From: Escherichia coli
GTDB lineage: Bacteria; Pseudomonadota; Gammaproteobacteria; Enterobacterales; Enterobacteriaceae
Strand: one strand, 5' to 3'
DNA length: 64,000 nucleotides
Assembly: GCF_003790525.1 (NCBI RefSeq)
Contig: NZ_CP033635.1
The notes under the pieces were generated by a model. That model was not told the origin of the DNA. It did not search any database and saw only the letters and a program-made list of their open reading frames with translations. Each line of letters begins with the position of its first letter. Within the stretch, counting starts at the first letter, position 1. A program made the translations under genes and the position numbers. Below, one piece after another: positions 21,085 to 45,290 of the stretch.

Positions 21085-21821
21085 GCGTTTTCAGCCAGTT
21101 CCTGTGCCATCAGGGCGCGCACTTTTTCCAGGCATGCTGGGGTGTCGACGCCCGGACCGGTTGCGGCAACCTCAAATGTACGGATGTTGATCCCCGCGCT
21201 CATCAACCGCAGCTGCTCCAGTGATTCTGCCTGCTCCTGCATGGACTCCGGTAACTGGCTGTAGTTTTGCAGCACATCGCGACGATAAGCGTAAATACCA
21301 ACGTGTTTCAGGTAGCGCGCTTTTTCAGCATTACGCGGATAGGGAATCGGCGAACGGCTGAAATAAAGCGCATCCTGGCGGGTATTTACCACCACTTTTA
21401 CCGTGCTTGGCTCGGTCGCTTCTTCGGCAGAAATCGCGTGGCATAGCGTTGCCACTGGCAACGCGGGATCATCACGCATTCCTTGTAGCAGCGTTTCTAC
21501 ATCCCGCGGGCGAATCATTGGTTCGTCGCCCTGCAGGTTAATGTAGATATCTGCCTCGACTTTATGCATCACCTCGACCAGCCGATCGGTGCCGGATTCA
21601 TGATCGTTGCGCGTCATGATGGCTTTCCCGCCAAATGCCTGCACGGCCTTTTCAACACGCTGATCGTCTGTTGCCACCCAAACTTCTGCGACGCCCGCCA
21701 CCTGTAACGCACGCTCGTAAACATGCTGGATCATCGGTTTACCAACAATATCGAGCAGTGGCTTACCCGGCAGGCGCGATGAGCCATAACGAGCCGGGAT
21801 GACAATAACAGCTTTGCTCAT
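21081..21821 (-). CDS. kpsU: CMP-Kdo synthetase KpsU
   Basis: 246 aa; N-terminus [22 protein letters not shown] typical of KdsB/KpsU cytidylyltransferases. Confidence 0.9.
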
Positions 21822-21830
21822 TTCAACTCC

Positions 21831-23510
21831 TTACAAAGACAGAATCACTTTTGCACCCACCGCCAGCTGATAGAGGATGGTGGAAATACCACGGGTAACT
21901 TCAATGTTTTTCGATTCATATTTCGGCAGAACCATAATCTCATCGCCCGGTTTGAGTGAATCCACATCTTCTGCGTTGACGGCTGCACCGTTCTGACGAA
22001 TGACGATAATTCTGGCGTTACCCGATTTCTGCGTCAGGCCACCACATTTCTCGATGTAATCCTCGGTGGTCATACCCTTCTGCCAGCTCACCGCGTTCGG
22101 GAACAGCACTTCGCCATGAACCATAACCAGCGATGTTTTCTCCGGAATATTGATGACGTCGCCATCTTCAAGCAGAACAGAATCAATATTGGATTCGTTG
22201 AGGATCACTTCACCTTTCGGAACAACGGTGCGTGCTTTCGCCACAAAGCGGCTGATCAGTTGTGCTTCCTGCATTCGCAGGCTGGCTTCTTCTTTGGTCG
22301 ATGACTGGGCAGAAAGTGATGCTTCCTCCAGCTTTTGCAGCGAGAGATTCAGCATCTCTTTCTGACGCTGAGCCACTGATGGGCGATAAAGCTGAACTGC
22401 GTTCATCTGCGACATGCTGTTCGGGCGGACTTTTTCCAGAACCGCACGCATAGTGGAACCATAAGGCAGTACCATGGCATGTTCACCGGAGTGTGCGCCT
22501 TCAACCCGCACCTGAATGGTGCCGGCATAGCGGTCAGTGCTCACGATTAAGGTATCGCCATTTTGCAACATACGGCCTGGCGCAGAACTGATCGGATAGT
22601 ATTCGCTGCGTTTTTGCAGCCCCTGTTTACGCATAATCGTAATGTGAGTCGCGCCAGGCTTAGGGCGCGCCCAGCTCAACGCTTCCGTTACGGGAATGCT
22701 GCTTTCGCGGAACTCAAAGTCGTAGCTGTTAAAGACATCGCCCTGAACGCTGAAAGTATGCTGACGCGGCCCGACGATGATGGTGTCACCATCGGCGAAC
22801 TGCGAAAGCCCCAGTTTGCCGTTCAGCAGGAAGTCGTACAGGTTGACGTTGGAGCGCACGCGGTTACCGCGCTTGACCACAATATCAACGTAACTTCCGC
22901 GCTCTGGATCAACGCCGCCAGCCTTGATCAGATAATTGAGTAACGAATCAGACGTCACACCGCCATACAGACCAGGATTACGCACAAATCCGGTCACGTA
23001 CACTTTTACTGGCTGCGCCTGTAATAAGGAGGCGTAGACGTTGACGTTGGACTGGTACACTTCCTTCACTTTTGATGTAACCAGAGTGTTCAACTGACTA
23101 TTGCTAACCCCGGCAACTTTCACCGGACCAACGTTTGGCAGAAAAATATTACCTTTGGGATCAATCTGTAATGCACCATCAAAGGTGAACGCACCCCACA
23201 AGCGAACCTGAATGCTATCACCCGGATTCAGAATATAGTCAGGGTTGAATCCTACCGTCGCACCGCTATCCGCGCTGGTGCCGTTGAAAAGTTGAGCACC
23301 AAACATACGGCTCATTACCACCGGCGGTGCGGGCGGCGGGGTATTGTCGAAGCCGCTCATGTTTTGCGTATCCGACTGTTGCCCGTTCAGAATACCGGTA
23401 AGCGGCGCGGCTCCTGTAAGGTTTGGGTCAGCGTTAATATCAATGGCCGCGCTGGCCTGCGCCGCGTGACAGGCGGCAATCAGTAAAATTGATTTAAATA
23501 ATTTCATCAC
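21831..23510 (-). CDS. kpsD: capsule export outer-membrane protein KpsD
   Basis: 559 aa with signal peptide; region 1 order between kpsE and kpsU. Confidence 0.85.
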   Translation of the reverse strand: MMKLFKSILLIAACHAAQASAAIDINADPNLTGAAPLTGILNGQQSDTQNMSGFDNTPPPAPPVVMSRMFGAQLFNGTSADSGATVGFNPDYILNPGDSIQVRLWGAFTFDGALQIDPKGNIFLPNVGPVKVAGVSNSQLNTLVTSKVKEVYQSNVNVYASLLQAQPVKVYVTGFVRNPGLYGGVTSDSLLNYLIKAGGVDPERGSYVDIVVKRGNRVRSNVNLYDFLLNGKLGLSQFADGDTIIVGPRQHTFSVQGDVFNSYDFEFRESSIPVTEALSWARPKPGATHITIMRKQGLQKRSEYYPISSAPGRMLQNGDTLIVSTDRYAGTIQVRVEGAHSGEHAMVLPYGSTMRAVLEKVRPNSMSQMNAVQLYRPSVAQRQKEMLNLSLQKLEEASLSAQSSTKEEASLRMQEAQLISRFVAKARTVVPKGEVILNESNIDSVLLEDGDVINIPEKTSLVMVHGEVLFPNAVSWQKGMTTEDYIEKCGGLTQKSGNARIIVIRQNGAAVNAEDVDSLKPGDEIMVLPKYESKNIEVTRGISTILYQLAVGAKVILSL

Positions 23511-23530
23511 AAACTCATTCAGCGACAGCG

Positions 23531-24679
23531 TTAGTCTCGGTGATCTTCAATAACAGCCAGCAACAGTTTCAGGGTGCCGAACAGCAGGCAGCACACCAGT
23601 AACCAGCAGGCGATCAAATAAGGGATATTTGGAAAAGACGATTCCTGCGGCAACTGTGGCGAACTGATCACTGACAGCACCTTGAGCTTACGAGCCGCTT
23701 CTACACGGGTCTTTTCAATGGAGGTCAGGGTCAGTTTGTACAGCTCGGTGTTGAACTCTACTTTTGATTTGATTTCTTCAAAATCCACCGCCATACGGTT
23801 TAGCTTGTCACCCTGCGGCGCTGTGATTTTGCTTTTTTCTTCGTCAATTTGTGCCTGCAATGACTGAATCGCATTACGCGCACTCACAACTTGCGGGGCG
23901 TCCTCACGCAGATACGTCAGCAAGTTCCGCAGGTCCGCTTCCATCTGGATCTTCTGGCCCATCAGCGTATTCACTAACGTGCTCGCCGCCTGTGCCTGTG
24001 CCTGTGGATCCAGAACGTTGTTGTTGTCTTGATAAGAGAGCAATTCCGCTTTGCTGGCGTCCAGACGCTGGCGTGCCTTTTCCATCTCCGTTTCTGCAAA
24101 GGCAAGCTGGTCACGCGCGATGCGATGTGACATCTCATTGATAAAGCGCTCTGACTCTTTCAGCACGGTTTGGTTAAACTTAAGCGCAAATTCCGGGCTA
24201 AAGCCCTGCGTCTGAATATTCAGTAATCCGGTTTTATCGTCATACGAGACGTTGATACGGTCCTTGTAGTACTTCAGGAAGCCTTCTGCGGTTTCATCCT
24301 TGCTAAGATGATTAAGAAAATCGAGCCCGCTGTGGCTAAACGCTTCACGAAAATTTAGTTGCTTATCCAGCGCCGCCAGCATATCCGGCGAGTTGATGTA
24401 CTCTTTCAGATACAACGCATCTTCTGCGGAACTGGGGTTAGAGGCACCCAGAAGCAGACCAAAATTCAGGCTGCCGCTGTTTAAATCATCCGAGCGTTTA
24501 ATGGCGACTTTCGACTCGCTCATATAGCGAGGCTGGCTGAAGATAGCCAGATAGATCAGCAGCACCGCCATCGGTGTCAGAATGATGATTTTCGCCAGGT
24601 GTTTTTGGATATCTGCCAGTGAGATGGCAGACAGACGAGCACGCATCCAGGATACGGCAGACTTCACTTTTATCAACAT
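23531..24679 (-). CDS. kpsE: capsule export inner-membrane protein KpsE
   Basis: 382 aa, N- and C-terminal TM segments with coiled-coil middle; region 1 order. Confidence 0.85.
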   Translation of the reverse strand: MLIKVKSAVSWMRARLSAISLADIQKHLAKIIILTPMAVLLIYLAIFSQPRYMSESKVAIKRSDDLNSGSLNFGLLLGASNPSSAEDALYLKEYINSPDMLAALDKQLNFREAFSHSGLDFLNHLSKDETAEGFLKYYKDRINVSYDDKTGLLNIQTQGFSPEFALKFNQTVLKESERFINEMSHRIARDQLAFAETEMEKARQRLDASKAELLSYQDNNNVLDPQAQAQAASTLVNTLMGQKIQMEADLRNLLTYLREDAPQVVSARNAIQSLQAQIDEEKSKITAPQGDKLNRMAVDFEEIKSKVEFNTELYKLTLTSIEKTRVEAARKLKVLSVISSPQLPQESSFPNIPYLIACWLLVCCLLFGTLKLLLAVIEDHRD

Positions 24680-24750
24680 GTAACGATTATCAAAGTTTCA
24701 GTGGGGCGCAAACTCAATGAGAGACTAACCTCTCGAACCCCGTTGCTTAA

Positions 24751-25734
24751 TTAGTCGAAAATGCGCACAAGGCCAGTGACTTTATTTGCCTTGTTGGTCA
24801 CCAATAATGTTGAGACGCGGTGCTTTTGCATTTTTTCTTCCGCTTCAATGATCATGGTGTCTTCCGGTAGCGTCAGCGGTTCACGTGTCATCATCTGCGC
24901 AGCCGTGGCGGATGTCAGAGAATCCTCTTTTTCCATAAAGCGACGCAGGTCACCGTCGGTGATAATGCCCGCTAGCCCACCTTCTGCGTCTTCTACCATC
25001 ACCATTCCCTGGCATCCGCTGGTGATACGTTGAATCACGGTTTTAAATGACGCATCCAGCTGTACCGCAGGAACATCATGCTGCATGACATCAGCAACGC
25101 GGGTCAGCAGGCGACGACCTAATGAACCGCCCGGGTGATAGCGCGCAAAATCATTCGGCATAAATTTGCGTTGGTGGATCATGGCAATCGCCAGCGCATC
25201 GCCGATCGCCATCGTCAGCGTGGTAGACGTTGTTGGTGCAAGATTATTCGGGCAGGTTTCATTCGCCATGTGGAGTTCCAGCACGGCATCAGCATTTTTC
25301 GCCAGCGTGGAATTTCCATTATTGGTAATGGCGATAATTCGGTTGCCGAAATTTTTCAGTGAAGGAACTAGCTTGAGGATTTCATCCGTTTCACCGCTGG
25401 CAGAAATAAGGATCAGAAGATCGTAAGGCGTAATCATGCCCAGATCGCCATGGAAAGCTTCTGCAGGATGAATAAAGAAACTAGGCGTACCCGTAGAGGC
25501 CAGCGTCGCTGACATTTTACGACCGACATGCCCTGATTTACCCATTCCCGAAAGAATAACGTGACCTTTACAGTTCATTATCAAATTAAGGACTCGCTGG
25601 TACTGCCCGGAATCCAGTTGTTTAGACAAGTTTTGTAATGCTGCGCCTTGTTCTGCCAGAGTCTGGCGAACAGAGGTAATTAGATATGGATCGATAGTAC
25701 TGCTCTGGTCATCAGGTAAATGTCTTTCAGACAT
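24751..25734 (-). CDS. kpsF: arabinose-5-phosphate isomerase KpsF
   Basis: SIS domain plus tandem CBS domains; start set at ATG 25734 (MSERHL) preceded by AAGGAG SD rather than the longer track ORF. Confidence 0.85.
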   Translation of the reverse strand: MSERHLPDDQSSTIDPYLITSVRQTLAEQGAALQNLSKQLDSGQYQRVLNLIMNCKGHVILSGMGKSGHVGRKMSATLASTGTPSFFIHPAEAFHGDLGMITPYDLLILISASGETDEILKLVPSLKNFGNRIIAITNNGNSTLAKNADAVLELHMANETCPNNLAPTTSTTLTMAIGDALAIAMIHQRKFMPNDFARYHPGGSLGRRLLTRVADVMQHDVPAVQLDASFKTVIQRITSGCQGMVMVEDAEGGLAGIITDGDLRRFMEKEDSLTSATAAQMMTREPLTLPEDTMIIEAEEKMQKHRVSTLLVTNKANKVTGLVRIFD

Positions 25735-26500
25735 ATCAGCTCCTTTGCACGGAAATAATGCCACAGTCACAACAAACCCGAACCCACTATAATTTATTTA
25801 TGCTAAATCAATGGGTTGTAACAAAATTTTCAATGAATATAAAACCATGGTCAGTCCATGCTTATATGCAGGACTTATCACCTTCTTATTAAGTCGCAAT
25901 GTCTCATGGAGGTGCGAAGATGCTGCAATATTACAGGCGAGAAGGGGAACCAAATTTTGCCCACCTATTTAACACACCCCTACATTATGAACAAGGAATT
26001 TAGGATTTTTATCATTTATTAAAATGTTTCCTACTTGACTATTAAGGCAAAAAACAATTTATCAATTGATTATTTCCTTGTAAAAAAAGAACGTATGACT
26101 ATGTTATTAATAAATAAAACACGCAAATAATGGTGATGTTGTTTTGTGATTAACTATTTAAGTGCGGCATAATAAACAGGTTGACAATTTCTATGTAAAG
26201 AAGAGGAAAATAATAAAATTTTAGCGGTGACTATTGAATGATATGATAGTTGTGGTGTTGATTATTTCTGGTAATGAATGCGGAATTAAATCTGGCCGGA
26301 TTGTATTTTTGCTATATCTATTTTTCAGGAGATTATTATTAAATAGAAAAATAACAATGGTGATTATCTCCGATTGAGCTGGAGTCACGTATGCCAGCGA
26401 GTGCTTTCTTCCGGGCCTTCCTTCACTTCAGAGAAAGAGCCTATGGAAAAGAGGCAATCATCAGGCTCTTTTTGAGTCATATGCGCCGATAATCAACTGT
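25735..26500 (-). promoter_or_regulatory. AT-rich kps region 1 promoter/regulatory region upstream of kpsF
   Basis: ~0.75 kb AT-rich non-coding DNA 5' of kpsF; promoter elements not assigned. Confidence 0.4.
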
Positions 26501-26912: not shown

Positions 26913-26925
26913 TCTTAAGAATTAG

Positions 26926-26975
26926 TGGTGCCCGGACTCGGAATCGAACCAAGGACACGGGGATTTTCAATCCCC
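26926..26975 (-). other. pheV: 50-nt 3' fragment of tRNA-Phe (acceptor/T-arm through anticodon-stem region): island junction direct repeat
   Basis: Minus strand reads ...GGGGATTGAAAATCCCCGTGTCCTTGGTTCGATTCCGAGTCCGGGCACCA, matching the 3' ~50 nt of tRNA-Phe as I recall it; 5' part of the tRNA is replaced by unrelated/degenerate sequence. Confidence 0.75.
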
Positions 26976-32049: not shown

Positions 32050-32773
32050 TGATGCAGCACGTCAGGAGCAACTGATTAAACGGATAAGAAAACTGCTGGC
32101 GCTGAGCCGGAATAACAGTAATCCCCATGAGGCAGGTCAGGCTCTTTCCCGCGCACAGGCGCTGATGCGGAAGCATGGTATCACCGAACTGGATGCTGAT
32201 ATTTCGGTGATAAAAACCTCATCATCAAAGGGAGCACCGTCAGAAGCGGAAAAAGTTCCGGTATGGATGGGGCGTCTTATGAATGTTGTTGCAGGGGCAT
32301 TCGGATGCCATACATACCTGGATTGGCGTATCACAACCGGAGGATACTGGCGGCGGATTGTCACATTTTATGGTTTTGGGGAGCGTCCGGTTGTGGCTGC
32401 GTATGCCTTTGATGTTCTCTGCCGGCAGATGCAAAAGGCGACAAAAGAGTATCTCTCAACCCAGAGCCGGAAATTAAAACACTCAACCCGTCGTGCAAGA
32501 GCTGCGATGTTTCGTGACGGCTGGGTTTATGGGGTGCGTGATGTGGTGGATGCATTCCGGCTCACGGAAGATGAGACGCGTGTAATGAATACGTGGCTGC
32601 AGAACCAGCAATTTGAGGGAATGGTCGTCTTCCGGGAGGTAAAGGACTGCCATGGCGGTGACCATGCACGCTGGCAGGGATACAACGAGGGGAAAAAGGC
32701 AACGCTGAATCACGGTGTTGGTTCCCGGGATCTGAGACCGGAAAGCCTGATATCAGGCGGAGGTGAGGTATGA
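32042..32773 (+). CDS. conserved ICE hypothetical protein
   Basis: Start at ATG 32042 (MNNDAARQ) overlapping parB stop; the longer track ORF from 31907 is an upstream read-through. Confidence 0.6.
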   Translation: MNNDAARQEQLIKRIRKLLALSRNNSNPHEAGQALSRAQALMRKHGITELDADISVIKTSSSKGAPSEAEKVPVWMGRLMNVVAGAFGCHTYLDWRITTGGYWRRIVTFYGFGERPVVAAYAFDVLCRQMQKATKEYLSTQSRKLKHSTRRARAAMFRDGWVYGVRDVVDAFRLTEDETRVMNTWLQNQQFEGMVVFREVKDCHGGDHARWQGYNEGKKATLNHGVGSRDLRPESLISGGGEV

Positions 32774-33348
32774 GTAATAACTTGTCACAGGCCACCAACG
32801 GACTGTTGATGCAGCTGGTGATGGATCTCAAAAGTGGCTATCTGCGCCGCTGTGAAGCGCTGGGGCTTTCCCGGGAAGAAATGCAGATGCTGCAGGGGCT
32901 GAGTATTGAGGAAATTCACTATCTGTCAAATTCAGAGGTGTCAGTGCTGCGGCTGGATATTAACCACAATAACCTTGTACGCATGCTGCAGCAGGCCAGG
33001 ACTGAACAGAAACGCCTGCAGCGAATCGATCGCGCTCTTGCACTGGGGGGATCGATTGAACTCATGGCGTTTTATTTTGGCCTTTCCAGTGTGGACGTTG
33101 CAGCACGGCGCCGTATTTCAGGAATTGATGTGCGCCCGGGGCGGGGTATCACACTCAGCGATGATGAAAACTCTGAACTCTGGAGACTGTGGCAGAAAGC
33201 AGGGATTAACGATGTGGAGAGCGCTGACGGGCTGGACGTCATGATGCTCTGTGCAGAGCAGATGAATATCCCGCTCACGGCCGTCTGGCATGCTGTCAGG
33301 GGGTGGCATACAGCCGGAAGCCCTGAACAGGTAAGGAATGCGTCATGA
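32770..33348 (+). CDS. conserved ICE hypothetical protein
   Basis: 192 aa; ATGA start/stop overlap with neighbours. Confidence 0.55.
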   Translation: MSNNLSQATNGLLMQLVMDLKSGYLRRCEALGLSREEMQMLQGLSIEEIHYLSNSEVSVLRLDINHNNLVRMLQQARTEQKRLQRIDRALALGGSIELMAFYFGLSSVDVAARRRISGIDVRPGRGITLSDDENSELWRLWQKAGINDVESADGLDVMMLCAEQMNIPLTAVWHAVRGWHTAGSPEQVRNAS

Positions 33349-33593
33349 AGATGAAAGAGCTGGTTCCCGGTCTGCTGAGCTGTCCCGGGGTACCGCCAGC
33401 CTGCCAGCGGAAGGCGGTGGACCTCGTTAACCGGTTTCGTCGCGGGGAGAGGAATTACCATGAACTGAAGGAAAAGGGATTCGGGTATATCAAGATTAAT
33501 GTTGGTCCGGACTGGCGGTTACTGAGCAGGAACCGGGGACAAACCTGGGCGCTGTTGAGTCACGAGCGATACAACAATATGAGACTGAGGTAG
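33345..33593 (+). CDS. small hypothetical protein (cargo cluster gene 1)
   Basis: 82 aa; ATGA overlap with upstream gene. Confidence 0.5.
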   Translation: MKMKELVPGLLSCPGVPPACQRKAVDLVNRFRRGERNYHELKEKGFGYIKINVGPDWRLLSRNRGQTWALLSHERYNNMRLR

Positions 33594-33599
33594 AGCAAA

Positions 33600-33776
33600 A
33601 TGACTGATTTTGGTTCAACTAAATATAACGCCAGTTTTGAAGAATGGCATGAAGTGTTAATGGACTATGCCGGGTTACGTGGTGGAAGTGCCGCCGATGC
33701 CGAAGCATGGCGCGATGACTATGAAGCTGGAAAAACGCCTGTCGAAGCATATTGCGATGAGTGGGGTGATGAATGA
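33600..33776 (+). CDS. small acidic hypothetical protein, 58 aa (below the ORF-track size cutoff)
   Basis: ATG 33600 to TGA 33774-33776, translated MTDFGSTKYNASFEEWHEVLMDYAGLRGGSAADAEAWRDDYEAGKTPVEAYCDEWGDE; stop overlaps next start (ATGA at 33773). Confidence 0.5.
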   Translation: MTDFGSTKYNASFEEWHEVLMDYAGLRGGSAADAEAWRDDYEAGKTPVEAYCDEWGDE

Positions 33777-33985
33777 GCAAAATTGACTATCAGGAGCTGC
33801 GTGAGGCGGCAGAAAAGGCAATGCATGACGACTGGGGATTTGACACGGACCTTTTCTATGAGCTGGTAGAACCATCGATTGTGCTGGCTCTGCTGGATGA
33901 ATGCGAGACGCTGGCAACTGAGAATGCGAAGCTGAAGACAGCACACCCTCAACTGTTCGGGAAAGCTGAAGGAGCGACAAAATGA
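33773..33985 (+). CDS. small protein with Ead/Ea22-like N-terminal motif (MSKIDYQELRE)
   Basis: 70 aa; shares N-terminal motif with the 34190 gene. Confidence 0.55.
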   Translation: MSKIDYQELREAAEKAMHDDWGFDTDLFYELVEPSIVLALLDECETLATENAKLKTAHPQLFGKAEGATK

Positions 33986-34203
33986 GCAAGCCAACCGACG
34001 AAGAAATAGTTCGGGTGTTGGAAGAACACGGGCGCTGTATGACTTACGTCGTGACCAACTGGCTTAGGGATAAATATCGCACACTCAAAACGGCATACGT
34101 TTTGCGTCGTCTAAAGAAACTGGAGTTCGACGGGAAAGTAAAGCGCGTTAACAGTTCTTATATAAGACAAATTTGCTGGGAGGCAACCAGTGAGCGAGAT
34201 TGA
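33982..34203 (+). CDS. small basic hypothetical protein (possible DNA-binding)
   Basis: 73 aa; overlapping start/stop in operon. Confidence 0.5.
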   Translation: MSKPTDEEIVRVLEEHGRCMTYVVTNWLRDKYRTLKTAYVLRRLKKLEFDGKVKRVNSSYIRQICWEATSERD

Positions 34204-34789
34204 TTATCAGGCGCTACGGGAACGTTATTCACCTAAGCCAGTACCTGAATGCTCTGTTTGTGGCGAGGAAATGTCAATACAGCGCATATCTGGAGCACAT
34301 GTTGTTTATGCCTGTTCCGGTGAGGGTGATGACGGATATTTTAAGATAGGGCGTACTTTTGCAGACGAACATTATGAAGAATCACGCGTAACAGTAGTTG
34401 ATGATAGTGATCCCGATGTGATTGCACTACTGGACGAACTGGAGGCAGCAAAATCAAAACTCAACGAGCAGCGTGAATATTACGAGGGAGTAATCGCGGA
34501 TGGGAGTAAGCGTATTGCAGAACTGGAAGCACGGGAAATAAAACCAGCCAAAGGCGAAGTTCTTGTCGTTGTATCTGGTTTTACTGGTTGCGGAAAAAGC
34601 GCCATTGCCGGGGAAATAGAAATCGCGATGAAGGCTATTGGTGTGCCGGTTCTATGGACTAATGGCGATGCGGAAAAGCGCATGACAGGAGCTGACTGGC
34701 TGACAGCGATTGAGATGTACAAACCAAATGTGCGCATCGTGGAAGTTAATGTGCCACGCGTCGCTGGCATTCGCACCAAAGGAGAGTGA
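34190..34789 (+). CDS. Ead/Ea22-like prophage-type protein (assignment from memory of the N-terminal motif)
   Basis: 199 aa; N-terminus MSEIDYQALRE, CxxC...C zinc-ribbon-like segment, coiled-coil middle. Confidence 0.55.
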   Translation: MSEIDYQALRERYSPKPVPECSVCGEEMSIQRISGAHVVYACSGEGDDGYFKIGRTFADEHYEESRVTVVDDSDPDVIALLDELEAAKSKLNEQREYYEGVIADGSKRIAELEAREIKPAKGEVLVVVSGFTGCGKSAIAGEIEIAMKAIGVPVLWTNGDAEKRMTGADWLTAIEMYKPNVRIVEVNVPRVAGIRTKGE

Positions 34790-34790
34790 T

Positions 34791-35306
34791 ATGGCGTTAA
34801 CACACCGCGAACTCTGTCAGATTGCGTACAAGTTCCTTAAGCGCAACGGGTTCAAGGTTTGTTTTCATGACCGCTTTATAGCTGTAACCAGTACCGGAGA
34901 GCAGCCAGATGCTATGGGATTCAGAAATTCAGCATCATGCCTGATAGAGGCGAAATGTTCTCGTGCTGACTTGTTGGCAGATAGAAAAAAGCGTTTTCGT
35001 AAAAATCCATCTCTTGGAATGGGCGACTGGCGATTCTTTATTAGTGAGCCGGGAATTATTTCAATTGAGGATTTACCACCTGGCTGGGGATTACTTCACG
35101 TTGTTAACGGAAGAGTACGGAAAGTACATGGGTGGCCCAGGGGTAATTGCTGTTGGGGTAATCCTGACGATAAGCCATTTACTGGAAATAAGCAGGTTGA
35201 ATGCGATTACATGTTATCTGCATTAAGGCGCATGGAGTTGAGAGGGCACCTTAATGAAATATATGACGGTGTAATTGTTAATAAGAAAGAAGGAAACGCA
35301 GCATGA
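34791..35306 (+). CDS. hypothetical protein with PD-(D/E)xK nuclease-like motif
   Basis: 171 aa from ATG 34791 with GGAGAG SD; motif ...EQPDAMGF...CLIEAKCS... Confidence 0.5.
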   Translation: MALTHRELCQIAYKFLKRNGFKVCFHDRFIAVTSTGEQPDAMGFRNSASCLIEAKCSRADLLADRKKRFRKNPSLGMGDWRFFISEPGIISIEDLPPGWGLLHVVNGRVRKVHGWPRGNCCWGNPDDKPFTGNKQVECDYMLSALRRMELRGHLNEIYDGVIVNKKEGNAA

Positions 35307-35701
35307 TCACTATTACCAAAGAGCGACTGCTGACAATCCAGCAGTGGCGCGAAACATACGGACCTGGTAGCAACGTTGTATTGCCAGCAGAAGAAGCGGA
35401 AGAACTGGCACGAATTGCACTGGCATTGCTGGAAGCAGAACCGCTGGTGCCCGTCATGTATAAAGGAATGAAACTGTTAACAAAAGAGGGGCTTGAGCTT
35501 ATTCGTGACGGTATTGCTGAGGCTACAGGACTGGAAGCAATGTGTATGGCTGAGGCTTTGCTGTCTGGGGCGTCAGTGCCGTCAGTGCCAGAAGAAATGT
35601 ATTGGCAGGATGCGCCTGTTGGAGGCAGTAGCAAAGCAGCTGCATACGCGACAGGCTGGAATGCCTGTCGCGCCGCAATGCTTCAGGGAAAAGGAAAGTG
35701 A
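35303..35701 (+). CDS. hypothetical protein, paralog A of a shared N-terminal module
   Basis: 132 aa; first ~45 aa nearly identical to the 36134 gene. Confidence 0.55.
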   Translation: MITITKERLLTIQQWRETYGPGSNVVLPAEEAEELARIALALLEAEPLVPVMYKGMKLLTKEGLELIRDGIAEATGLEAMCMAEALLSGASVPSVPEEMYWQDAPVGGSSKAAAYATGWNACRAAMLQGKGK

Positions 35702-35702
35702 T

Positions 35703-35924
35703 ATGGCTAACTCGTTACTTGAAACCTGCAACAACTGGCAGATTCAGAGGGCGGAGATTTTATCTCGCAATCCAGATATGGCAATGACAATTGATAATCT
35801 GGACACGCTAATTGAACGGACCGTGCGTTCTGCAATTGATATAGCACATCGAGTGGATTGGGATTTCAGAGAAGCGGAGCGGCTTGCTAAAGAGCAGGAG
35901 AAAGCAGCGGGTAAAGGAGACTGA
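35703..35924 (+). CDS. small hypothetical protein
   Basis: 73 aa from ATG 35703 (MANSLLETC); track ORF 35493 is an upstream extension. Confidence 0.5.
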   Translation: MANSLLETCNNWQIQRAEILSRNPDMAMTIDNLDTLIERTVRSAIDIAHRVDWDFREAERLAKEQEKAAGKGD

Positions 35925-35925
35925 T

Positions 35926-36123
35926 ATGGATAAAAACACCACTGCTTACTGGAATCTGTCACTTGATACCGAATGCCCAAAATGCGGTCACAATTTCGAT
36001 CTGCTTTGTGATCCAGATTTCTGGGAATTTTCTGGAGCAAAACAGGCATGTGAAGAAATAAAAGGTTACGAAACATGCTGTCCAGAATGTAACCATGAAT
36101 TTAAAACAGATTTTGTGTATTGA
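35926..36123 (+). CDS. small zinc-ribbon protein (CPKCG...CCPECNH)
   Basis: 65 aa from ATG 35926; two CxxC pairs. Confidence 0.5.
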   Translation: MDKNTTAYWNLSLDTECPKCGHNFDLLCDPDFWEFSGAKQACEEIKGYETCCPECNHEFKTDFVY

Positions 36124-36133
36124 GGCATAACAA

Positions 36134-36547
36134 ATGACCACTATAACCAAAGAGCGACTGCTGACAATCAAGCAGTGGCGCGAAACATACGGACCGGGTA
36201 GCAACGTTGTACTGCCAGCAGAAGAAGCGGAAGAACTGGCACGGATTGTACTGGCATCGCTGGAAGCGGAACCGGTGGCGTGGATGTGTGATGACGAAGA
36301 TGGTCGTGAATATAACGGTCATAACGAGTTTTCTTATGGAAGACGCGGGATTCCCCTTTACGCCGTCCCGCCAGCGCCGAATGGATTGGTTAAAGCCGTA
36401 GCTTTCTATGAGCAGGTTAAACGTGAAAATCCGCCAGTTGAAACGGGAGCATGGAAAGACGCCGTTGACTGGGTGCTTAAACAAGCTTGTCAGGCTGTAA
36501 ACACTGGCATCAATGAAAGAAGAACAATTGAAGAAAATGATGATTGA
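36134..36547 (+). CDS. hypothetical protein, paralog B of a shared N-terminal module
   Basis: 137 aa; N-terminal ~45 aa shared with the 35303 gene, C-terminus unrelated. Confidence 0.55.
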   Translation: MTTITKERLLTIKQWRETYGPGSNVVLPAEEAEELARIVLASLEAEPVAWMCDDEDGREYNGHNEFSYGRRGIPLYAVPPAPNGLVKAVAFYEQVKRENPPVETGAWKDAVDWVLKQACQAVNTGINERRTIEENDD

Positions 36548-36595
36548 GCCGGAAGCAGCAAAAAAGCGCATTGCAGAACTGGAGGAGCGCCGGTC

Positions 36596-36811
36596 ATGAG
36601 AAAAATCAGTGGAATGTTGAACCTGGAGAAGGCCAGGATGCAGTTGCGTGTTTTGTTATCAGGACCGGTTCCTGCGATCACTCCGATGTCGCATGCCGTG
36701 GCAATTAAAGTTGTGCCTGATGCTCCGGATGCGAGTGAGCGGAGGGTGGCTGAACTGGAACAGGCCTGCGCTGCCGCGGGCATTCGTATCAAAGGGGAAC
36801 AAGTGAAATGA
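36596..36811 (+). CDS. small hypothetical protein
   Basis: 71 aa; operon context. Confidence 0.45.
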   Translation: MRKISGMLNLEKARMQLRVLLSGPVPAITPMSHAVAIKVVPDAPDASERRVAELEQACAAAGIRIKGEQVK

Positions 36812-37029
36812 AACTGAAGATGCAGGCAATGGACGGCCCGGTGATTATAGAGAGTAGTGATGTGACACAGTTTTACCCTGACCATGAAAGTGGCGGGGAA
36901 CTCACCGCTGTTGAGTACCTTGCTGACGGGGGAAGAATCACCGCGAGGGTGAGTCACTCTTTTTATCAGGTTGCTGCGGCACTTGCCGGGGCATGGCGTG
37001 CGGATGATGCATCAAAAAGCGGTGGGTGA
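36808..37029 (+). CDS. small hypothetical protein
   Basis: 73 aa; ATGA overlap with upstream gene. Confidence 0.45.
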   Translation: MKLKMQAMDGPVIIESSDVTQFYPDHESGGELTAVEYLADGGRITARVSHSFYQVAAALAGAWRADDASKSGG

Positions 37030-37289
37030 GGACTGTGCCGGAATGATTGTCTGTTCCGAAGCTGCTGAACCGCGACATAAATTTTTTATGTTGCGGTGAA
37101 GCAGCCGGCAAACGAAGAGCGTCAGCGTATCAACAGTTAAGGAAAATATCTTCTGAAGCCGGACGCGACAGTCAGTCCGGTGGTGCTCGTGTGGTGAAGT
37201 GTTTAGCCTGCATCTTTGACAGGGTTCAGTTATAAGCATTTCGGAAACCGTTCCCCGGCGCAGTCTGCCGGGATTTAAGGAGTTTATTT

Positions 37290-38555
37290 ATGGCGCTACC
37301 TGCAGAAAGCCTTATTGCGCATACGCTCAGAAAAATGAAGGCCAGCATGGCAGAGAAAGCCAGTCGTGAGGACGGGAGGATACGCAGTGGGCTGTTGTTT
37401 ACCGGCAATGTTCACGATTCGTATCCCCGCAGGCTGTTGCTGGATACGCGCCTTTCTCCCCTTGATAAAACTGCGTGGATGATGATTCGTCTGCATGCCC
37501 TGAATAATGAGGGCGCAGTATTTCCGACGTACGATGAACTGCAGTTACAACTGGCATCTCCCGGGTGCGGGAAGGCGTCCCGTGAAACAGTGAGCCGGGT
37601 GCTGACAATGCTGCGGCTTACGGGCTGGCTGAGTCTGTGTAAGCGGGTCAGGGATGAAAAAGGGCGGGTCCGGGGGAATATTTACGCCCTGCATGATGAG
37701 CCACTGACCTGCTGTGATGCAGAAAAGTTTGACCCACGATACCTGGATATGGTTCTGGATACTGTGAGCAGGAGCCGGAACAAGACAATCCGGCACACAG
37801 CCAGTGAAGTGCTCAGTGATATCAAAAATGAGCCCGGTATGCGGCATTACCACAGCCATATCACTCTGTTTGAATCGCGTATGGGGGCAGCACAGACACC
37901 TGGTCAGCTGGCGGCGCGTCAGCGGGTGAACCCGATGGTGAATGAAAACACAGGCAGAGAGAGTGGTTCGGATTCCGTACATACCCCTGCACCTGTCGTG
38001 CAGGTAACCGAACTCAGTGCTCCGTTAACCGAACTCAGTGAAAAACAGGAAATGAGCCCACTCAGTTCGGATTCCGTACCGCCTGAAAAATCAGTAACTT
38101 ATCACTCGGTTCGGAAACCGAACAATTACGTACGTAATATCACACACAGTGTGATTAAAAATACGTACGTATTGCCTGAGTCGGTGAAATCGCAAATCAG
38201 CACAGAAGACACGGACATGCTGACAAAACAACTGCAGGCGTTGCCGGAAGAACTGGCAGGTAGTGTGCTGAGCAGCCTGTCACAGATGCTCAGCAAAAAC
38301 ACGCTCCAGAATCCGGTTGGCTGGATGCTGGCTGTGATGAAACGTGCGCGTGAGGGAAGTTTTAATACGCCGGATATGTCCGTGCATGAATCCCGGTCGC
38401 CAGCCCGTGCACCATATCAGCCTGTGTACAACCGTGATGAACGTGAACGTCGTCGCAGGAAAGTGGCGTCACCTGAAACGGTGAGCAACATTGTCGCAGA
38501 ATTCCGTGCCAGCCTGAAACGTGCAAATGCTGCCCGTCTGGCGGCGCGTGTTTGA
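37290..38555 (+). CDS. putative ICE replication/regulatory protein (winged-helix-like N-terminal region), adjacent to repeat array
   Basis: 421 aa; stop lies 2 nt before the 36-bp repeat array; resembles pathogenicity-island replication proteins in position. Confidence 0.55.
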   Translation: MALPAESLIAHTLRKMKASMAEKASREDGRIRSGLLFTGNVHDSYPRRLLLDTRLSPLDKTAWMMIRLHALNNEGAVFPTYDELQLQLASPGCGKASRETVSRVLTMLRLTGWLSLCKRVRDEKGRVRGNIYALHDEPLTCCDAEKFDPRYLDMVLDTVSRSRNKTIRHTASEVLSDIKNEPGMRHYHSHITLFESRMGAAQTPGQLAARQRVNPMVNENTGRESGSDSVHTPAPVVQVTELSAPLTELSEKQEMSPLSSDSVPPEKSVTYHSVRKPNNYVRNITHSVIKNTYVLPESVKSQISTEDTDMLTKQLQALPEELAGSVLSSLSQMLSKNTLQNPVGWMLAVMKRAREGSFNTPDMSVHESRSPARAPYQPVYNRDERERRRRKVASPETVSNIVAEFRASLKRANAARLAARV

Positions 38556-38556
38556 T

Positions 38557-39384
38557 GGTTAAAAATCGTACGGTGTTGGCAGTGCCAACAGTGGTTAAAA
38601 ATTGTGCGGTGTTGGCAGTGCCAACAGTGATTAAAAAATGTACGGTGTTGGCAGTGCCAACAGTGGTTAAAAATTGCGCGGTGTTGGCAGTGCCAACAGC
38701 GGTTAAAAAGTGTACGGCGTTGGCAGTGCCAACAGTGATTGAAAAATGTACGGTGTTGGCAGTGCCAACAGTGATTAAAAAATGTACGGTGTTGGCAGTG
38801 CCAACGGTGATTAAAAAATGTACGGTGTTGGCAGTGCCAACAGTGGTTAAAAATTGCGCGGTGTTGGCAGTGTCAACAGTGGTTAAAAATTGTGCGGTGT
38901 TGGCAGTGCCAACAGTGATTAAAAAATGTACGGTGTTGGCAGTGCCAACAGTGGTTAAAAATTGCGCGGTGTTGGCAGTGCCAACAGCGGTTAAAAAGTG
39001 TACGGCGTTGGCAGTGCCAACAGTGATTGAAAAATGTACGGTGTTGGCAGTGCCAACAGTGATTAAAAAATGTACGGTGTTGGCAGTGCCAACGGTGATT
39101 AAAAAATGTACGGTGTTGGCAGTGCCAACAGTGGTTAAAAATTGCGCGGTGTTGGCAGTGCCAACAGTGGTTAAAAATTGTGCGGTGTTGGCAGTGCCAA
39201 CAGTGATTAAAAAATGTACGGTGTTGGCAGTGCCAACAGCGGTTAAAAAGTGTACGGCGTTGGCAGTAGCAACAGCGATTAAAAAATGTACGGTGTTGCC
39301 AGTGGCAACAGTGGTTAAAAAGTGTCCGGCGTTGCCAGTGGCAACAGTGTTTGAAAATTGTACTGAGTTGGCACTGCCAACATG
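38557..39384. repeat. array of 23 tandem 36-bp direct repeats, each with a 17-bp palindrome TGTTGGCAGTGCCAACA (iteron/centromere-like)
   Basis: Directly counted units of 36 bp from 38557; higher-order periodicity of 288 bp (8 units); last units degenerate. Confidence 0.9.
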
Positions 39385-39486
39385 ACGTAATTTCAGTCAT
39401 TCCTTTTTTTATTTTTGATTGTCAGATCTCCGTCTGCAGGCTGACTATTTCAGCCCGATATCCTTTTCTTTTGCCGGAGATATAAC

Positions 39487-43717: not shown

Positions 43718-44275
43718 ATGGCTTCACGCGGCGTAAACAAAGTTATCCTGATAGGACATCTGGGGCAGGATCCGGATATCCGGTATTTCCCCAATGGCGG
43801 TGGCGCTGTGGCGAATCTGTCACTGGCGACCAGCGACACCTGGCGGGATAAACAGAGCGGTGAAATGAAGGAAGTTACTGAATGGCACCGCGTTGTTCTC
43901 TATGGAAAACTGGCTGAAGTTGCCGGCGAGTACCTGCATAAGGGGTCGCAGGTGTATATAGAAGGCCAGCTTAAAACCCGTAAATGGTTTGACCAGCAGA
44001 ATGGTGTGGACCGTTATTCAACTGAGGTTGTTGTGGGCGTGAATGGTGTCATGCAGATGCTGGGTTCATCGCGTCAGCAGGGCGCTTCCGGTAATGGTGC
44101 TTCAGCACTGGCACAAGGGGGCCAGGGACATCCGCCGAAGACGACCGGACAGACTGGTCGTGCCACCCGGACGACGTCAACGGGTAATGGTGCTCCACCA
44201 ATGGACTTTGACGATGATATCCCCTTTATGGGGCTCGGGTATGGCATGGAACGACGAATTATTCATGCCATGTAA
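43718..44275 (+). CDS. ssb: single-stranded DNA-binding protein
   Basis: 185 aa; OB-fold N-terminus, Gly/Gln-rich linker, acidic tail ending DFDDDIPF. Confidence 0.9.
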
Positions 44276-44285
44276 TATTAACCAC

Positions 44286-44309
44286 GGGGCGTTACGCCCC
44301 ACTTTTTTA
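44286..44309 (+). terminator. rho-independent terminator after ssb
   Basis: GGGGCGTTACGCCCC stem-loop followed by TTTTTTAT. Confidence 0.7.
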
Positions 44310-44321
44310 TCCGGAGGTTCC

Positions 44322-45290
44322 GTGAGTGAAAAAGTTAACAAAATCACTATGATTCATGACGGGGCGTTCAAGAAGACGCTTGAAGATCCCGCCGCAGTAA
44401 GGGACTTTCTTGAACAGGTCTTGACACACGATCAGATATCCCGCTGTAATCTTGATACAATAGAAGTTGAAAAGAATTCGTTCGTGACGGAAAGTTTGCG
44501 TCAGCATGCCTGTGATGTTTTGATCAGCATGAAGACAAACGACGGCAGGGACGGATACATTTATACCTTAATCGAGCACCAGAGTTCGCCGGATAAATTC
44601 ATCCCGCTGCGTATGATGCGATATATCCTGGCTGTAATGGAGCAACATGTTGAAAAGCATAAGTGTGCACCTGTGGTGATCCCCGTGTTGTTTTATCATG
44701 GTGCAATGCGGCCATATCCGTATCCGCTGAACTGGGTGGATTGTCTGGATGACCCGGAGTACGGACGGGAGATTTATGGCGAGTCAAAGTCATTCAGTCT
44801 GGTGGATGTCAGTACGCTTGATGATGATGAAATTGAGCAGTATCGCCGGATGGCGGCGCTGATGTACACCATGAAGTCCGGAACTCAAGGTGATTTGATT
44901 GAGCTGATTGGTAAATCGATCACACTGACGGATAAGTATGGCAGTAGCATTCACCTGAATACGGTGCTTACTTATCTGATGGAACTTTACCAGATGGATG
45001 TTGCTGAACTTTTTGAAGCAATATCCACACACTATCCCAGCCATAAGGGGGTGATTATGACGATAGCGGAACAACTGGAAGAGAAAGGTCGGGTTGAAGG
45101 TCTGGAGAAAGGCCTTGAGAAAGGCCTTGAGAAAGGCCGTGCTGAAGGCCGTGCTGAAGAGCGTCAAAAAGCGCTTGCAGAAACTTATGCATCTGTCCGT
45201 CGCATGAGCGATATGGGGATGTCAACGGAAGTTATTAAGCAGGCACTTCATCTTTCTGATGAACAGATTCAGGAAGCGCTTAATAATTAA
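44322..45290 (+). CDS. Rpn (YhgA-like) family recombination-promoting nuclease
   Basis: GTG start at 44322 with GGAGG SD; N-terminal segment HDGAFKKTLEDPAAVRDFLE...GYIYTLIEHQSS resembles E. coli RpnA-E as recalled; the track ORF from 44043 is an upstream extension overlapping ssb. Confidence 0.7.
   Translation: MSEKVNKITMIHDGAFKKTLEDPAAVRDFLEQVLTHDQISRCNLDTIEVEKNSFVTESLRQHACDVLISMKTNDGRDGYIYTLIEHQSSPDKFIPLRMMRYILAVMEQHVEKHKCAPVVIPVLFYHGAMRPYPYPLNWVDCLDDPEYGREIYGESKSFSLVDVSTLDDDEIEQYRRMAALMYTMKSGTQGDLIELIGKSITLTDKYGSSIHLNTVLTYLMELYQMDVAELFEAISTHYPSHKGVIMTIAEQLEEKGRVEGLEKGLEKGLEKGRAEGRAEERQKALAETYASVRRMSDMGMSTEVIKQALHLSDEQIQEALNN

Follow-up and report, generated by a model that had tools for sequence, protein, structure and literature searches.

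The stretch of DNA analysed here, called the window below, comprises 64,000 nucleotides of an Escherichia coli genome (NCBI RefSeq assembly GCF_003790525.1, contig NZ_CP033635.1) and carries an integrative and conjugative element (ICE) of the SPI-7/PAPI-1/ICEclc type. Our subject is a compact run of twelve small genes of this ICE (33345-37029), designated g1 to g12. The element is recognizable by its marker proteins, which are encoded in one co-directional block and exceed their NCBIfam cut-offs: DnaB of the SPI-7 type (dnaB_SPI-7_type, 685 bits vs 655), ICE_PFGI_1_parB (379 bits vs 144), the STY4528_fam Rep (392 bits vs 130), ICE_PFL4669 (238 bits vs 111) and, likewise, TopB (topoisomerase III). 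In a 99.9% identical record, E. coli AR_0089, PGAP also names DUF2786, DUF2857, ssb and type IV secretion system genes. The ParA, DnaB, ParB, DUF2786 and DUF2857 genes lie on one side of the twelve genes and the STY4528-type rep on the other, and these NCBIfam and PGAP identities confirm that the cluster sits, as an initial annotation made from the sequence had it, between partition and replication modules. The genes and the features next to them are as follows.

32770..33348, plus strand: DUF2857 backbone gene (PGAP name), left flank; overlaps the g1 start by 4 nt; 62-78% amino acid identity in 16 ICEs of other genera
33345-33593, plus strand: g1, 82 amino acids; Pfam ParE_like, 1.2e-17
33600-33776, plus strand: g2, 58 amino acids; phrog_519
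33773-33985, plus strand: g3, 70 amino acids; truncated Ead/Ea22-like gene with the N-terminal block and the start of the coil; Pfam Ead_Ea22, 3.7e-06
33982-34203, plus strand: g4, 73 amino acids; phrog_9799, 1.9e-43; 99.1-99.6% DNA identity to P1-like phage-plasmids
34190-34789, plus strand: g5, 199 amino acids, GTG start; chimeric Ead/Ea22-like gene; Pfam Ead_Ea22, 4.6e-19
34791-35306, plus strand: g6, 171 amino acids; PD-(D/E)xK, MmcB-like putative nuclease
35303-35701, plus strand: g7, 132 amino acids; 48-residue N-terminus of the DUF551/EaA-type family and an unrelated C-terminal module
35703-35924, plus strand: g8, 73 amino acids; phrog_10585; 222/222 nt identical to the P1-like plasmid pMB4926_2
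35926-36123, plus strand: g9, 65 amino acids; two CxxC pairs; phrog_4173, 9.4e-28
36134-36547, plus strand: g10, 137 amino acids; paralogue of g7 with the same N-terminal block and a different C-terminal module
36537-36599, plus strand: 20-codon mini-ORF MMIEPEAAKKRIAELEERRS, relic of an Ea22 coil; its start overlaps the g10 stop and its stop the g11 ATG
36596-36811, plus strand: g11, 71 amino acids; orphan found in E. coli ICEs only, ending in the Ea22-type tail AGIRIKGE
36808-37029, plus strand: g12, 73 amino acids; phrog_5994, 1.7e-25; older phage-derived resident of the slot
37061..37105, no strand assigned: imperfect palindrome GCTGCTGAACCGCGACATAAATTTTTTATGTTGCGGTGAAGCAGC just after g12; single-stranded DNA fold of -22 kcal/mol, z -4.96; conserved in a divergent E. 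coli ICE (L023)
37195..37289, plus strand: ancestral rep leader with a conserved inverted repeat; aligns with the g1-rep spacer of other ICEs
37290..38555, plus strand: STY4528-family ICE replication protein, right flank; NCBIfam, 392 bits

All twelve open reading frames (ORFs; 58-199 amino acids, plus strand) reported in the initial annotation were found, with coupled stops and starts: the spacing between neighbours runs from -14 to +48 nt, there are four ATGA overlaps and three single-base spacers, and a Shine-Dalgarno (SD)-like sequence stands upstream of each of the 12 starts. Three ORFs in the raw list are upstream extensions, among them the TTG ORF from 34710, which extends g6; the likely starts are 34791 (g6), 35703 (g8) and 35926 (g9), as PGAP has them in the 99.9% identical genome. 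Since 11 of the 12 proteins match PHROG families, all of unknown function, the tight packing is not a chance arrangement of ORFs. In informative pairwise comparisons, meaning those with at least about 10 substitutions, the ratio of nonsynonymous to synonymous substitution rates (dN/dS) was 0.03-0.31, and these low values indicate that the gene families are under purifying selection. Judged by their reading frames, the twelve genes are intact and appear to be translationally coupled. A consensus scan of the plus strand from 28.0 to 38.6 kb detected no sigma-70-like promoter, and the sole terminator-like hairpin that such a scan detected in the block is a weak 5-bp one inside g9 (36012-36025). 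No RNA family was found by Rfam between 26 and 40 kb (E <= 0.1).

Is the cluster a single unit? The packing is real, but the genes fall into three parts of different standing: g1, which belongs to the ICE backbone; g2 to g10 with the relic, which form an insert; and g11 and g12, which are resident in the slot. The division rests in the first place on comparison with 16 related loci from Kluyvera, Erwinia, Edwardsiella, Chimaeribacter and Xenorhabdus, retrieved by anchoring on the DUF2857 protein. In all 16 the order is DUF2857, g1 homologue, rep; the g1 proteins are 52-60% identical to that of the window, and rep begins about 70-130 bp after g1. Having an orthologue at the same position in 16 of 16 ICEs of other genera, g1 is a backbone gene (its dN/dS against the divergent E. 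coli ICE L023 is 0.07), whereas none of the 16 loci has a relative of any gene from g2 to g12, so that backbone status does not extend to these. The last ~95 bp before the window rep align with the g1-rep spacer of the other-genus ICEs, including an inverted repeat. This alignment and the ancestral gene order together mark the DNA from the g1 stop to about 37190 as an insertion peculiar to E. coli lineages.

The inverted repeat upstream of rep lies at about 37205-37240 and reads CTGCATC...GGGTTCAG, then TAAGCAT. It is kept in nearly all of the other-genus spacers that could be aligned (that of Edwardsiella ictaluri, locus L007, did not align); the right arm there is GGGTGCAG, from which the window copy departs by one mismatch. 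It is likely an operator or promoter element for rep.

The limits of the exchanging part were set with a second E. coli ICE lineage, JNEC-KY177 (L023), whose backbone is ~82% identical to that of the window ICE. Shared sequence ends at the g1 stop and resumes at the g11 ATG, which confines the exchanging part to 33594-36595 and makes g11, g12, the 37061-37105 hairpin and the rep leader fixed residents. Between these limits JNEC-KY177 has DUF7446, a different allele of Ea22, g6 and a g10-like segment that has diverged to 76% identity. The possibility that all twelve genes were acquired as one unit was considered and is ruled out by the presence of g1 in 16/16 ICEs, by the limits at the g1 stop and the g11 ATG, and by the following segment map, obtained by local BLAST against fetched loci.

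33594..36595, plus strand: variable phage-derived insert (g2-g10 and relic); differs from L023; prophage and phage-plasmid matches of 76-100%
33587-33821: g2 and start of g3; lambdoid prophage nin region, with the same order of 58-residue gene and Ea22-like gene; 87.7%
33961-34194: g4; P1-like phage-plasmids; 99.1-99.6%
34436-34795: 3' half of g5; Ea22-like genes of P1-like plasmids and Shiga toxin (Stx) phages; 94-97.5%
34763-35447: g6 and first 145 nt of g7; Stx phage 75/02, P1-like plasmids, wrbA prophage; 96-98%
35641-36153: end of g7, g8, g9 and start of g10; plasmid pMB4926_2; 97.3%
36134-36284: g10 start; N-termini of DUF551-type genes; 93-95%
36383-36521: g10 3' part; prophage gene with the same N-terminus; 80.6%
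36545-36589: relic; Ea22 coiled-coil segments; 89-91%

Three stretches had no match among the fetched loci: ~140 bp of g3, ~210 bp of g5 (within its 5' half) and a central ~125 bp of g7. Most of g2-g10 is lambdoid early-region DNA, 76-100% identical and in the same gene order, so the likeness to a prophage early region that the initial annotation had remarked on proved to be one of descent, and its description of the modules as mosaic and shuffled is borne out by this map and by the differing slot contents of related ICEs. The order Ea22-like gene, 171-residue protein, DUF551-type gene is common to the Stx phage, the prophage and the window; the prophage counterpart lies in the pL operon between an anti-RecBCD gene and xis/int. 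Of 5426 complete E. coli genomes, 2196 contain parts of the block at no less than 80% identity, as do 305 phage records and 567 plasmids. The full twelve-gene version is present at ~99.9% identity in 24 of the 5426 genomes, many of them from avian or extra-intestinal isolates, and the rep-proximal part in 48. We have high confidence in the origin and architecture of the block, that is, in its being phage early-region DNA in an ICE slot.

Sister ICEs that are 98-99% identical in the backbone indicate that exchange continues. Two of them (L002 and L003) lack 35448-36133, which is exactly the DNA between two copies of a 145-nt direct repeat, an 831-bp repeat-to-repeat deletion, and among near-identical sister ICEs three different Ea22 alleles are found at the g5 position. 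Because sister ICEs differ in this way, by Ea22 allele or by a repeat-to-repeat deletion, the slot is best described as a recombination hotspot fed by the phage gene pool. The repeated features within it are these.

35303..35447, plus strand: direct repeat, copy 1, 145 nt; g7 N-terminus
36134..36278, plus strand: direct repeat, copy 2, 145 nt; g10 N-terminus; 93% identical to copy 1
34778..34795, 35690-35707 and 35913-35930, plus strand: gene-boundary joint AAAGGAGAGTGATATGGC, 18 nt, comprising SD, stop and start; recurs at three gene boundaries

The direct repeat bears out the view of g7 and g10 as paralogues with a shared N-terminus. The ends of BLAST segments coincide with the AAAGGAGAGTGATATGGC joints and with conserved blocks of the Ea22-like genes.

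Ea22 proteins have an N-terminal segment, followed by a coiled coil and then a C-terminal domain that varies, and are mosaic (PMC10834534). The two Ead/Ea22-like N-termini seen initially are real, as the Pfam Ead_Ea22 matches of g3 and g5 show. Alignment places the end of g3 within the coil, so that it has no C-terminal domain; in the sister ICE L003 its 5' part, including the start codon (window 33781-33894), is deleted and residues 42-70 remain. The g5 protein aligns with phage alleles over all three Ea22 parts and is laid out as an N-terminal block, a four-cysteine insert, a coiled coil and a C-terminal module of ~75 amino acids with a Walker-A-like motif. That module (residues ~118-199, 34550-34789) has an invariant GxTGxGKS within the motif GEVLV.V.G.TG.GKSA.AGEIEI, and a second motif V.I.E; it occurs in 435 protein clusters (50% identity), whose phage-type members, 110-620 amino acids long, have it at the C-terminus or at the N-terminus. 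It has no Pfam family of its own, its matches to P-loop profiles are weak, a resemblance to adenosine 5'-phosphosulfate kinase in NCBIfam is sub-threshold noise, and its AlphaFold model is of low confidence (pLDDT 62, the predicted local distance difference test score). Conserved across the aligned Ea22 alleles are the N-terminal block MSxIDYQALRE, a LALLDE block, the KRIAELE coil and the tail AGIR[T/I]KGE, the codons of which contain the SD of the next gene.

The 20-codon relic is likewise genuine, being 89-91% identical to the coiled-coil part of Ea22-like genes, but the initial annotation had placed its frame one base off (36537-36599 is correct). The g11 protein has only 7 relatives, the named ones all from E. 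coli, and is 94% identical to that of the divergent ICE L023. Given the coil sequence of the one and the Ea22-type tail of the other, the relic and g11 resemble what would be left of a third gene of the Ea22 type.

Might the whole block then be functionless debris of repeated recombination between ICE and prophages, hitch-hiking in a neutral slot that tolerates it? Its truncated and chimeric genes, the relic, the pseudogene flags set by PGAP, the loss from sister ICEs of g8, g9 and one paralogue or of the g3 start, the confinement of the block to E. coli lineages and the orphan g11 are what such a history would leave. But 12 of 12 ORFs are open, with SD sequences and start/stop coupling kept even at chimeric joints; the slot is filled in each of two ICE lineages that differ by ~18%, and its contents are not the same in the two; and the differences between ICEs in g6, g11 and g12 are mostly synonymous. 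We consider this explanation quite unlikely.

A role in cross-talk between ICE and prophages seems to us highly improbable. The Ea22 proteins of lambda and Stx phages favour lysogeny (PMC7093339), and the working form of Ea22 is a tetramer that depends on its N-terminal and coiled-coil parts (PMC7093339, PMC10834534); g3, just such an N-terminal/coil fragment, could perhaps co-assemble with phage Ea22. Ea22-like or truncated proteins of the ICE would alter prophage induction or lysogeny; alternatively the shared patches themselves would serve mainly as homology for recombination between ICE and prophage. The at least 80% identical segments in 2196 of 5426 genomes also speak for the idea. The idea is a purely inferential one.

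The g6 gene deserves separate treatment. It represents a conserved Enterobacterales family of ~170 amino acids in which E37, D40, E53 and K55 are invariant, and its dN/dS is 0.03-0.13. The PD-(D/E)xK likeness noticed initially holds in so far as the catalytic D...(D/E)xK motif is kept, on a restriction-endonuclease-like fold, and neighbours in the AlphaFold database are named MmcB, YraN or Holliday junction resolvase; no curated family backs it, g6 matching none in Pfam or NCBIfam, including any Pfam PD-(D/E)xK family, and the PHROG 'DNA repair protein' match is weak (3.2e-3). From MmcB-like/YraN-like proteins (PDB 3dnx, SPO1766) g6 differs in being only 23% identical to 3dnx, in having the additional conserved motifs GMGDWRF and GWGLL, and in the fusion of the g6-type domain to an Ea22 N-terminus in some Salmonella homologues. 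A PDB sequence search with g1, g4, g5 and g6 returned nothing significant. In every E. coli record inspected PGAP calls g6 a 'frameshifted' pseudogene of 179 bp (e.g. locus L001, 21447-21625). Is g6 then dead? This was ruled out: the 171-codon ORF (516 bp) is intact in every element examined and has the low dN/dS just cited, and the flag is an annotation artefact, probably arising from a short reference protein.

In the divergent lineage L023, g6 is 96.5% identical to that of the window against ~82% for the backbone, which implies independent or repeated acquisition. The gene has also travelled further. In the IncI2 plasmid pHN1122-1 (L035, 8280-9833) a g7-like ORF is followed by a g6 orthologue with 97.7% amino acid identity, ~3 kb from mobC/relaxase, after traL-like genes and next to hicAB; by analogy with IncP and IncI plasmids this position would be on the leading side. 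Altogether 108 plasmids typed as conjugative carry g6 at 96-99% DNA identity.

These plasmids bear on the suggestion that clusters of this kind often encode anti-defence or host-takeover functions. In its developed form, the block would be the ICE counterpart of the anti-defence/establishment islands of plasmid leading regions, a concept described in PMC11541004, and would be expressed first in the recipient, either shielding incoming DNA from restriction, RecBCD or abortive infection, or readying the host for replication of the element. The IncI2 arrangement and the 108 conjugative-typed plasmids with g6 speak for it, as do the occurrence of the same families in phage early operons beside anti-RecBCD, kil and cIII genes, the common direction of all genes with ssb and topB 5-7 kb downstream, and the strong hairpin after the block. 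Against this, the block proteins matched no defence or anti-defence family in Pfam, NCBIfam or the PHROG annotations, nor did the ten proteins run through PADLOC, so that the anti-defence suggestion found no support among known systems; the 12 proteins include no recognised anti-defence, SOS-inhibition or ssb product (ssb itself is ~7 kb downstream). None of the terms Ea22, DUF551 and MmcB appears in those supplementary files of PMC11541004 that are in text form. Reviews of ICEs give no polarity of the origin of transfer (oriT) for the present family, and ICEclc is reported to have two oriTs, so the literature settles no direction of transfer; the label 'leading region' for the IncI2 locus is by analogy only; and 16 related ICEs manage without the block. 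We therefore judge an establishment island unlikely. A related proposal makes the g1|rep junction of SPI-7-type ICEs a dedicated exchange site for lambdoid, P1-like and IncI2 early genes, with g6 and the Ea22 scaffolds as a common establishment/anti-defence module acting in the first minutes after cell entry; we would give it rather little credence.

The remaining genes also point to phages. The g2 gene (dN/dS 0.11) has 88% DNA identity to a 58-residue gene followed by an Ea22-like one in the nin region of a lambdoid prophage. In g4 a weak match to a transcription-regulator PHROG (1.1e-3) hints at what is possibly a winged-helix protein. Residues 37-132 of g7 resemble nin-region phage proteins, and a whole-length relative of g10 lies in a prophage pL operon (L027, 5380-5838). 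Pfam does not find the DUF551 domain (PF04448) in g7 or g10; what these share with PGAP-named DUF551 genes is the 48-residue N-terminal block. No Pfam match with E < 0.1 was obtained for any of g7-g12. The g9 protein, 98% identical to its counterpart on pMB4926_2 and with a dN/dS of 0.06-0.07, had been called a zinc-ribbon protein; its two CxxC pairs are there in the sequence, but all zinc-ribbon profile matches, including NCBIfam YnfU, are below threshold. In lambdoid prophages, nin-region relatives of g12 with 53-60% amino acid identity follow directly on the O/P replication genes or have a DUF551 gene as neighbour, and dN/dS for g11 and g12 is 0.09-0.31. The palindrome after g12 (37061-37105) is not a canonical terminator, as no T-run follows it; it could be an RNA processing/attenuation site or a single-strand DNA signal.

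How does the block compare with known systems? The closest are the lambdoid exo-xis or 'ea' region (lambda ea22, P22 ead/eaA, Stx Ea22 variants) and the nin region, which have the same families and partly the same DNA (76-100%), the order Ea22-like gene, 171-residue PD-(D/E)xK gene, DUF551-type N-terminus, overlapping stops and starts, and mosaicism with conserved N-termini and swapped C-terminal domains (PMC10834534). The ICE genes differ in lying downstream of par/dnaB and upstream of rep rather than in an exo-xis region under pL/N control, in having no DUF551 domain, xis/int, kil or cIII, and in that several of them are truncated or chimeric. Phage-plasmids of the P1/P7 type (P7 upf88.3-upf89.5) have g4, the 3' half of g5, g6, g8, g9 and the start of g10 at 93-100% identity in the same order; their replicon and life style are different, and the Ea22-like and DUF551 genes of which the ICE has fragments are full-length in them. 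Plasmid leading-region islands (PMC11541004), with IncI2 plasmids such as pHN1122-1 as the example, are likewise arrays of small co-directional genes on a conjugative element, with the g6 family and a g7-like ORF near the relaxase/oriT side, whereas the ICE block has no recognised anti-defence gene, psiB, ardA or ssb and sits in a replication/partition operon. The gene families (in PHROG, Pfam and PGAP), the mosaicism and the tight packing of the lambdoid exo-xis/ea and nin regions were already known. It is modestly new that an SPI-7-type ICE has, in its replication/partition operon, a precisely bounded slot which 16 relatives leave empty, that this slot continues to exchange with prophages and phage-plasmids, and that the g6 family occurs in four kinds of mobile element.

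The reading we favour is that of a phage-fed slot holding dispensable early genes that modulate host or prophage and are read through from the maintenance operon; we think it probable, though by a long way not certain. On this reading the maintenance operon of the SPI-7/PAPI-1-type ICE at an E. coli tRNA-Phe gene would have a fixed accessory slot, opened in E. coli lineages exactly at the g1 stop codon and filled with small genes of lambdoid early operons (from the nin region and from the ea/exo-xis part of the pL operon). Genes g11 and g12 would be older, fixed residents, and g2-g10 recent ones that are still exchanging. The partners in exchange would be co-resident prophages, P1-like phage-plasmids and, probably, IncI2 plasmids, with homologous recombination at blocks such as the Ea22 MSxIDYQALRE, LALLDE and coil segments, the AGIRxKGE tail with its SD-stop-start joint, and the 48-codon DUF551-type N-terminus; recombination at short shared blocks fits the published mosaicism of Ea22, in which N-terminus and coil are constant and the C-terminal domains unrelated (PMC10834534). 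Because there is no consensus sigma-70 promoter and just one weak hairpin on the gene strand, we infer that the block would be read through from the ICE par/dnaB promoter whenever the maintenance operon is on. For the ICE the genes would then play the part that they have in early phage development (transcription of exo-xis genes is very early; PMC10834534): they would modulate host DNA transactions or the lysis/lysogeny state, be dispensable, and have no core function in replication or transfer. Candidate actors are the Ea22 coiled-coil scaffolds with swappable ends, the MmcB-like nuclease, the possible winged-helix protein and the four-cysteine protein.

Several points weigh against this interpretation. 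Co-transcription is argued solely from the lack of consensus signals; the low dN/dS values reflect mostly phage history and not selection inside the ICE; and several members look like recombination debris, with g3 lacking its C-terminal domain, g5 and g7 chimeric, the relic mini-ORF, and PGAP flags of partial or frameshifted on g5, g6, g7 and g10. Deletion variants of the slot are present in sister ICEs of complete genomes. Moreover, no member matches a protein of demonstrated function. Initiation at oriC is inhibited when yfdQRST, a CPS-53 cluster with a DUF551 protein among its products, is overexpressed (PMC4776307), but the Ea22 and DUF551 papers deal with other alleles and domains and serve as leads only. 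What the block does for the ICE is a prediction from sequence in which we have low confidence.

Some observations concern the surroundings of the block. The 3' 51 nt of tRNA-Phe lie at 26916-26966 on the minus strand, and similarity to the reference ICE begins exactly there; the partial tRNA-Phe marks the ParA-side end of the ICE, an attachment-site repeat at pheV/pheU. The integrase end lies beyond the window, in which ARAGORN and Rfam find no complete tRNA. PGAP labels the corresponding sequence of AR_0089 a 78-nt 'tRNA-Ser'. To the left of the ICE, AR_0089 has a pap island and the window a kps locus. This is a group-2 capsule locus (4263-25770) with kpsF, E, D, U, C and S on the minus strand (17790-25770) and a serotype-specific region on the plus strand (~4.2-16.2 kb, 28-31% GC) encoding proteins of 1244 and 833 amino acids, for which the sole family match is an acetyltransferase repeat. 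A literature search on SPI-7-type ICEs of E. coli gave nothing specific to the present element.

Within the backbone, the DUF2857 and g1 genes (32770-33593) have overlapping stop and start codons and are kept together in every related ICE examined. This backbone pair, of which g1 is the ParE-like member, may have a regulatory role or one akin to that of a toxin-antitoxin system; the upstream partner, DUF2857, is no recognised antitoxin. Directly after rep come 23 tandem copies of a 36-bp unit (38556-39382; 89% matches), probably an iteron-like vegetative origin of the ICE. The array of AR_0089 is ~180 bp (5 units) shorter and otherwise 99.4-99.9% identical, and PGAP annotates a 'hypothetical protein' in it. 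Two ORFs of the window that run through the array (38552-39385, plus strand, 277 amino acids; 38873-39400, minus strand, 175 amino acids) were rejected as almost certainly spurious. Further downstream PGAP names an Rpn-family recombination-promoting nuclease (window 44142-45098; L001 30798-31754), and repeated segments of ~257 and ~112 nt, 94-96% identical, lie in and just downstream of its gene (~44.98-45.77 kb).

The families concerned are already catalogued, mostly with no assigned function, and related ICEs do without the block. That said, the locus documents recent and repeated gene flow among lambdoid prophages, P1-like phage-plasmids, IncI2 plasmids and an SPI-7-type ICE, which passes through one bounded slot by way of short conserved blocks at gene boundaries. 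The g6 family occurs in four kinds of mobile element and in thousands of genomes, at an early or entry-proximal position in each case; it is under purifying selection and makes a reasonable candidate for experiments on how such elements establish themselves.

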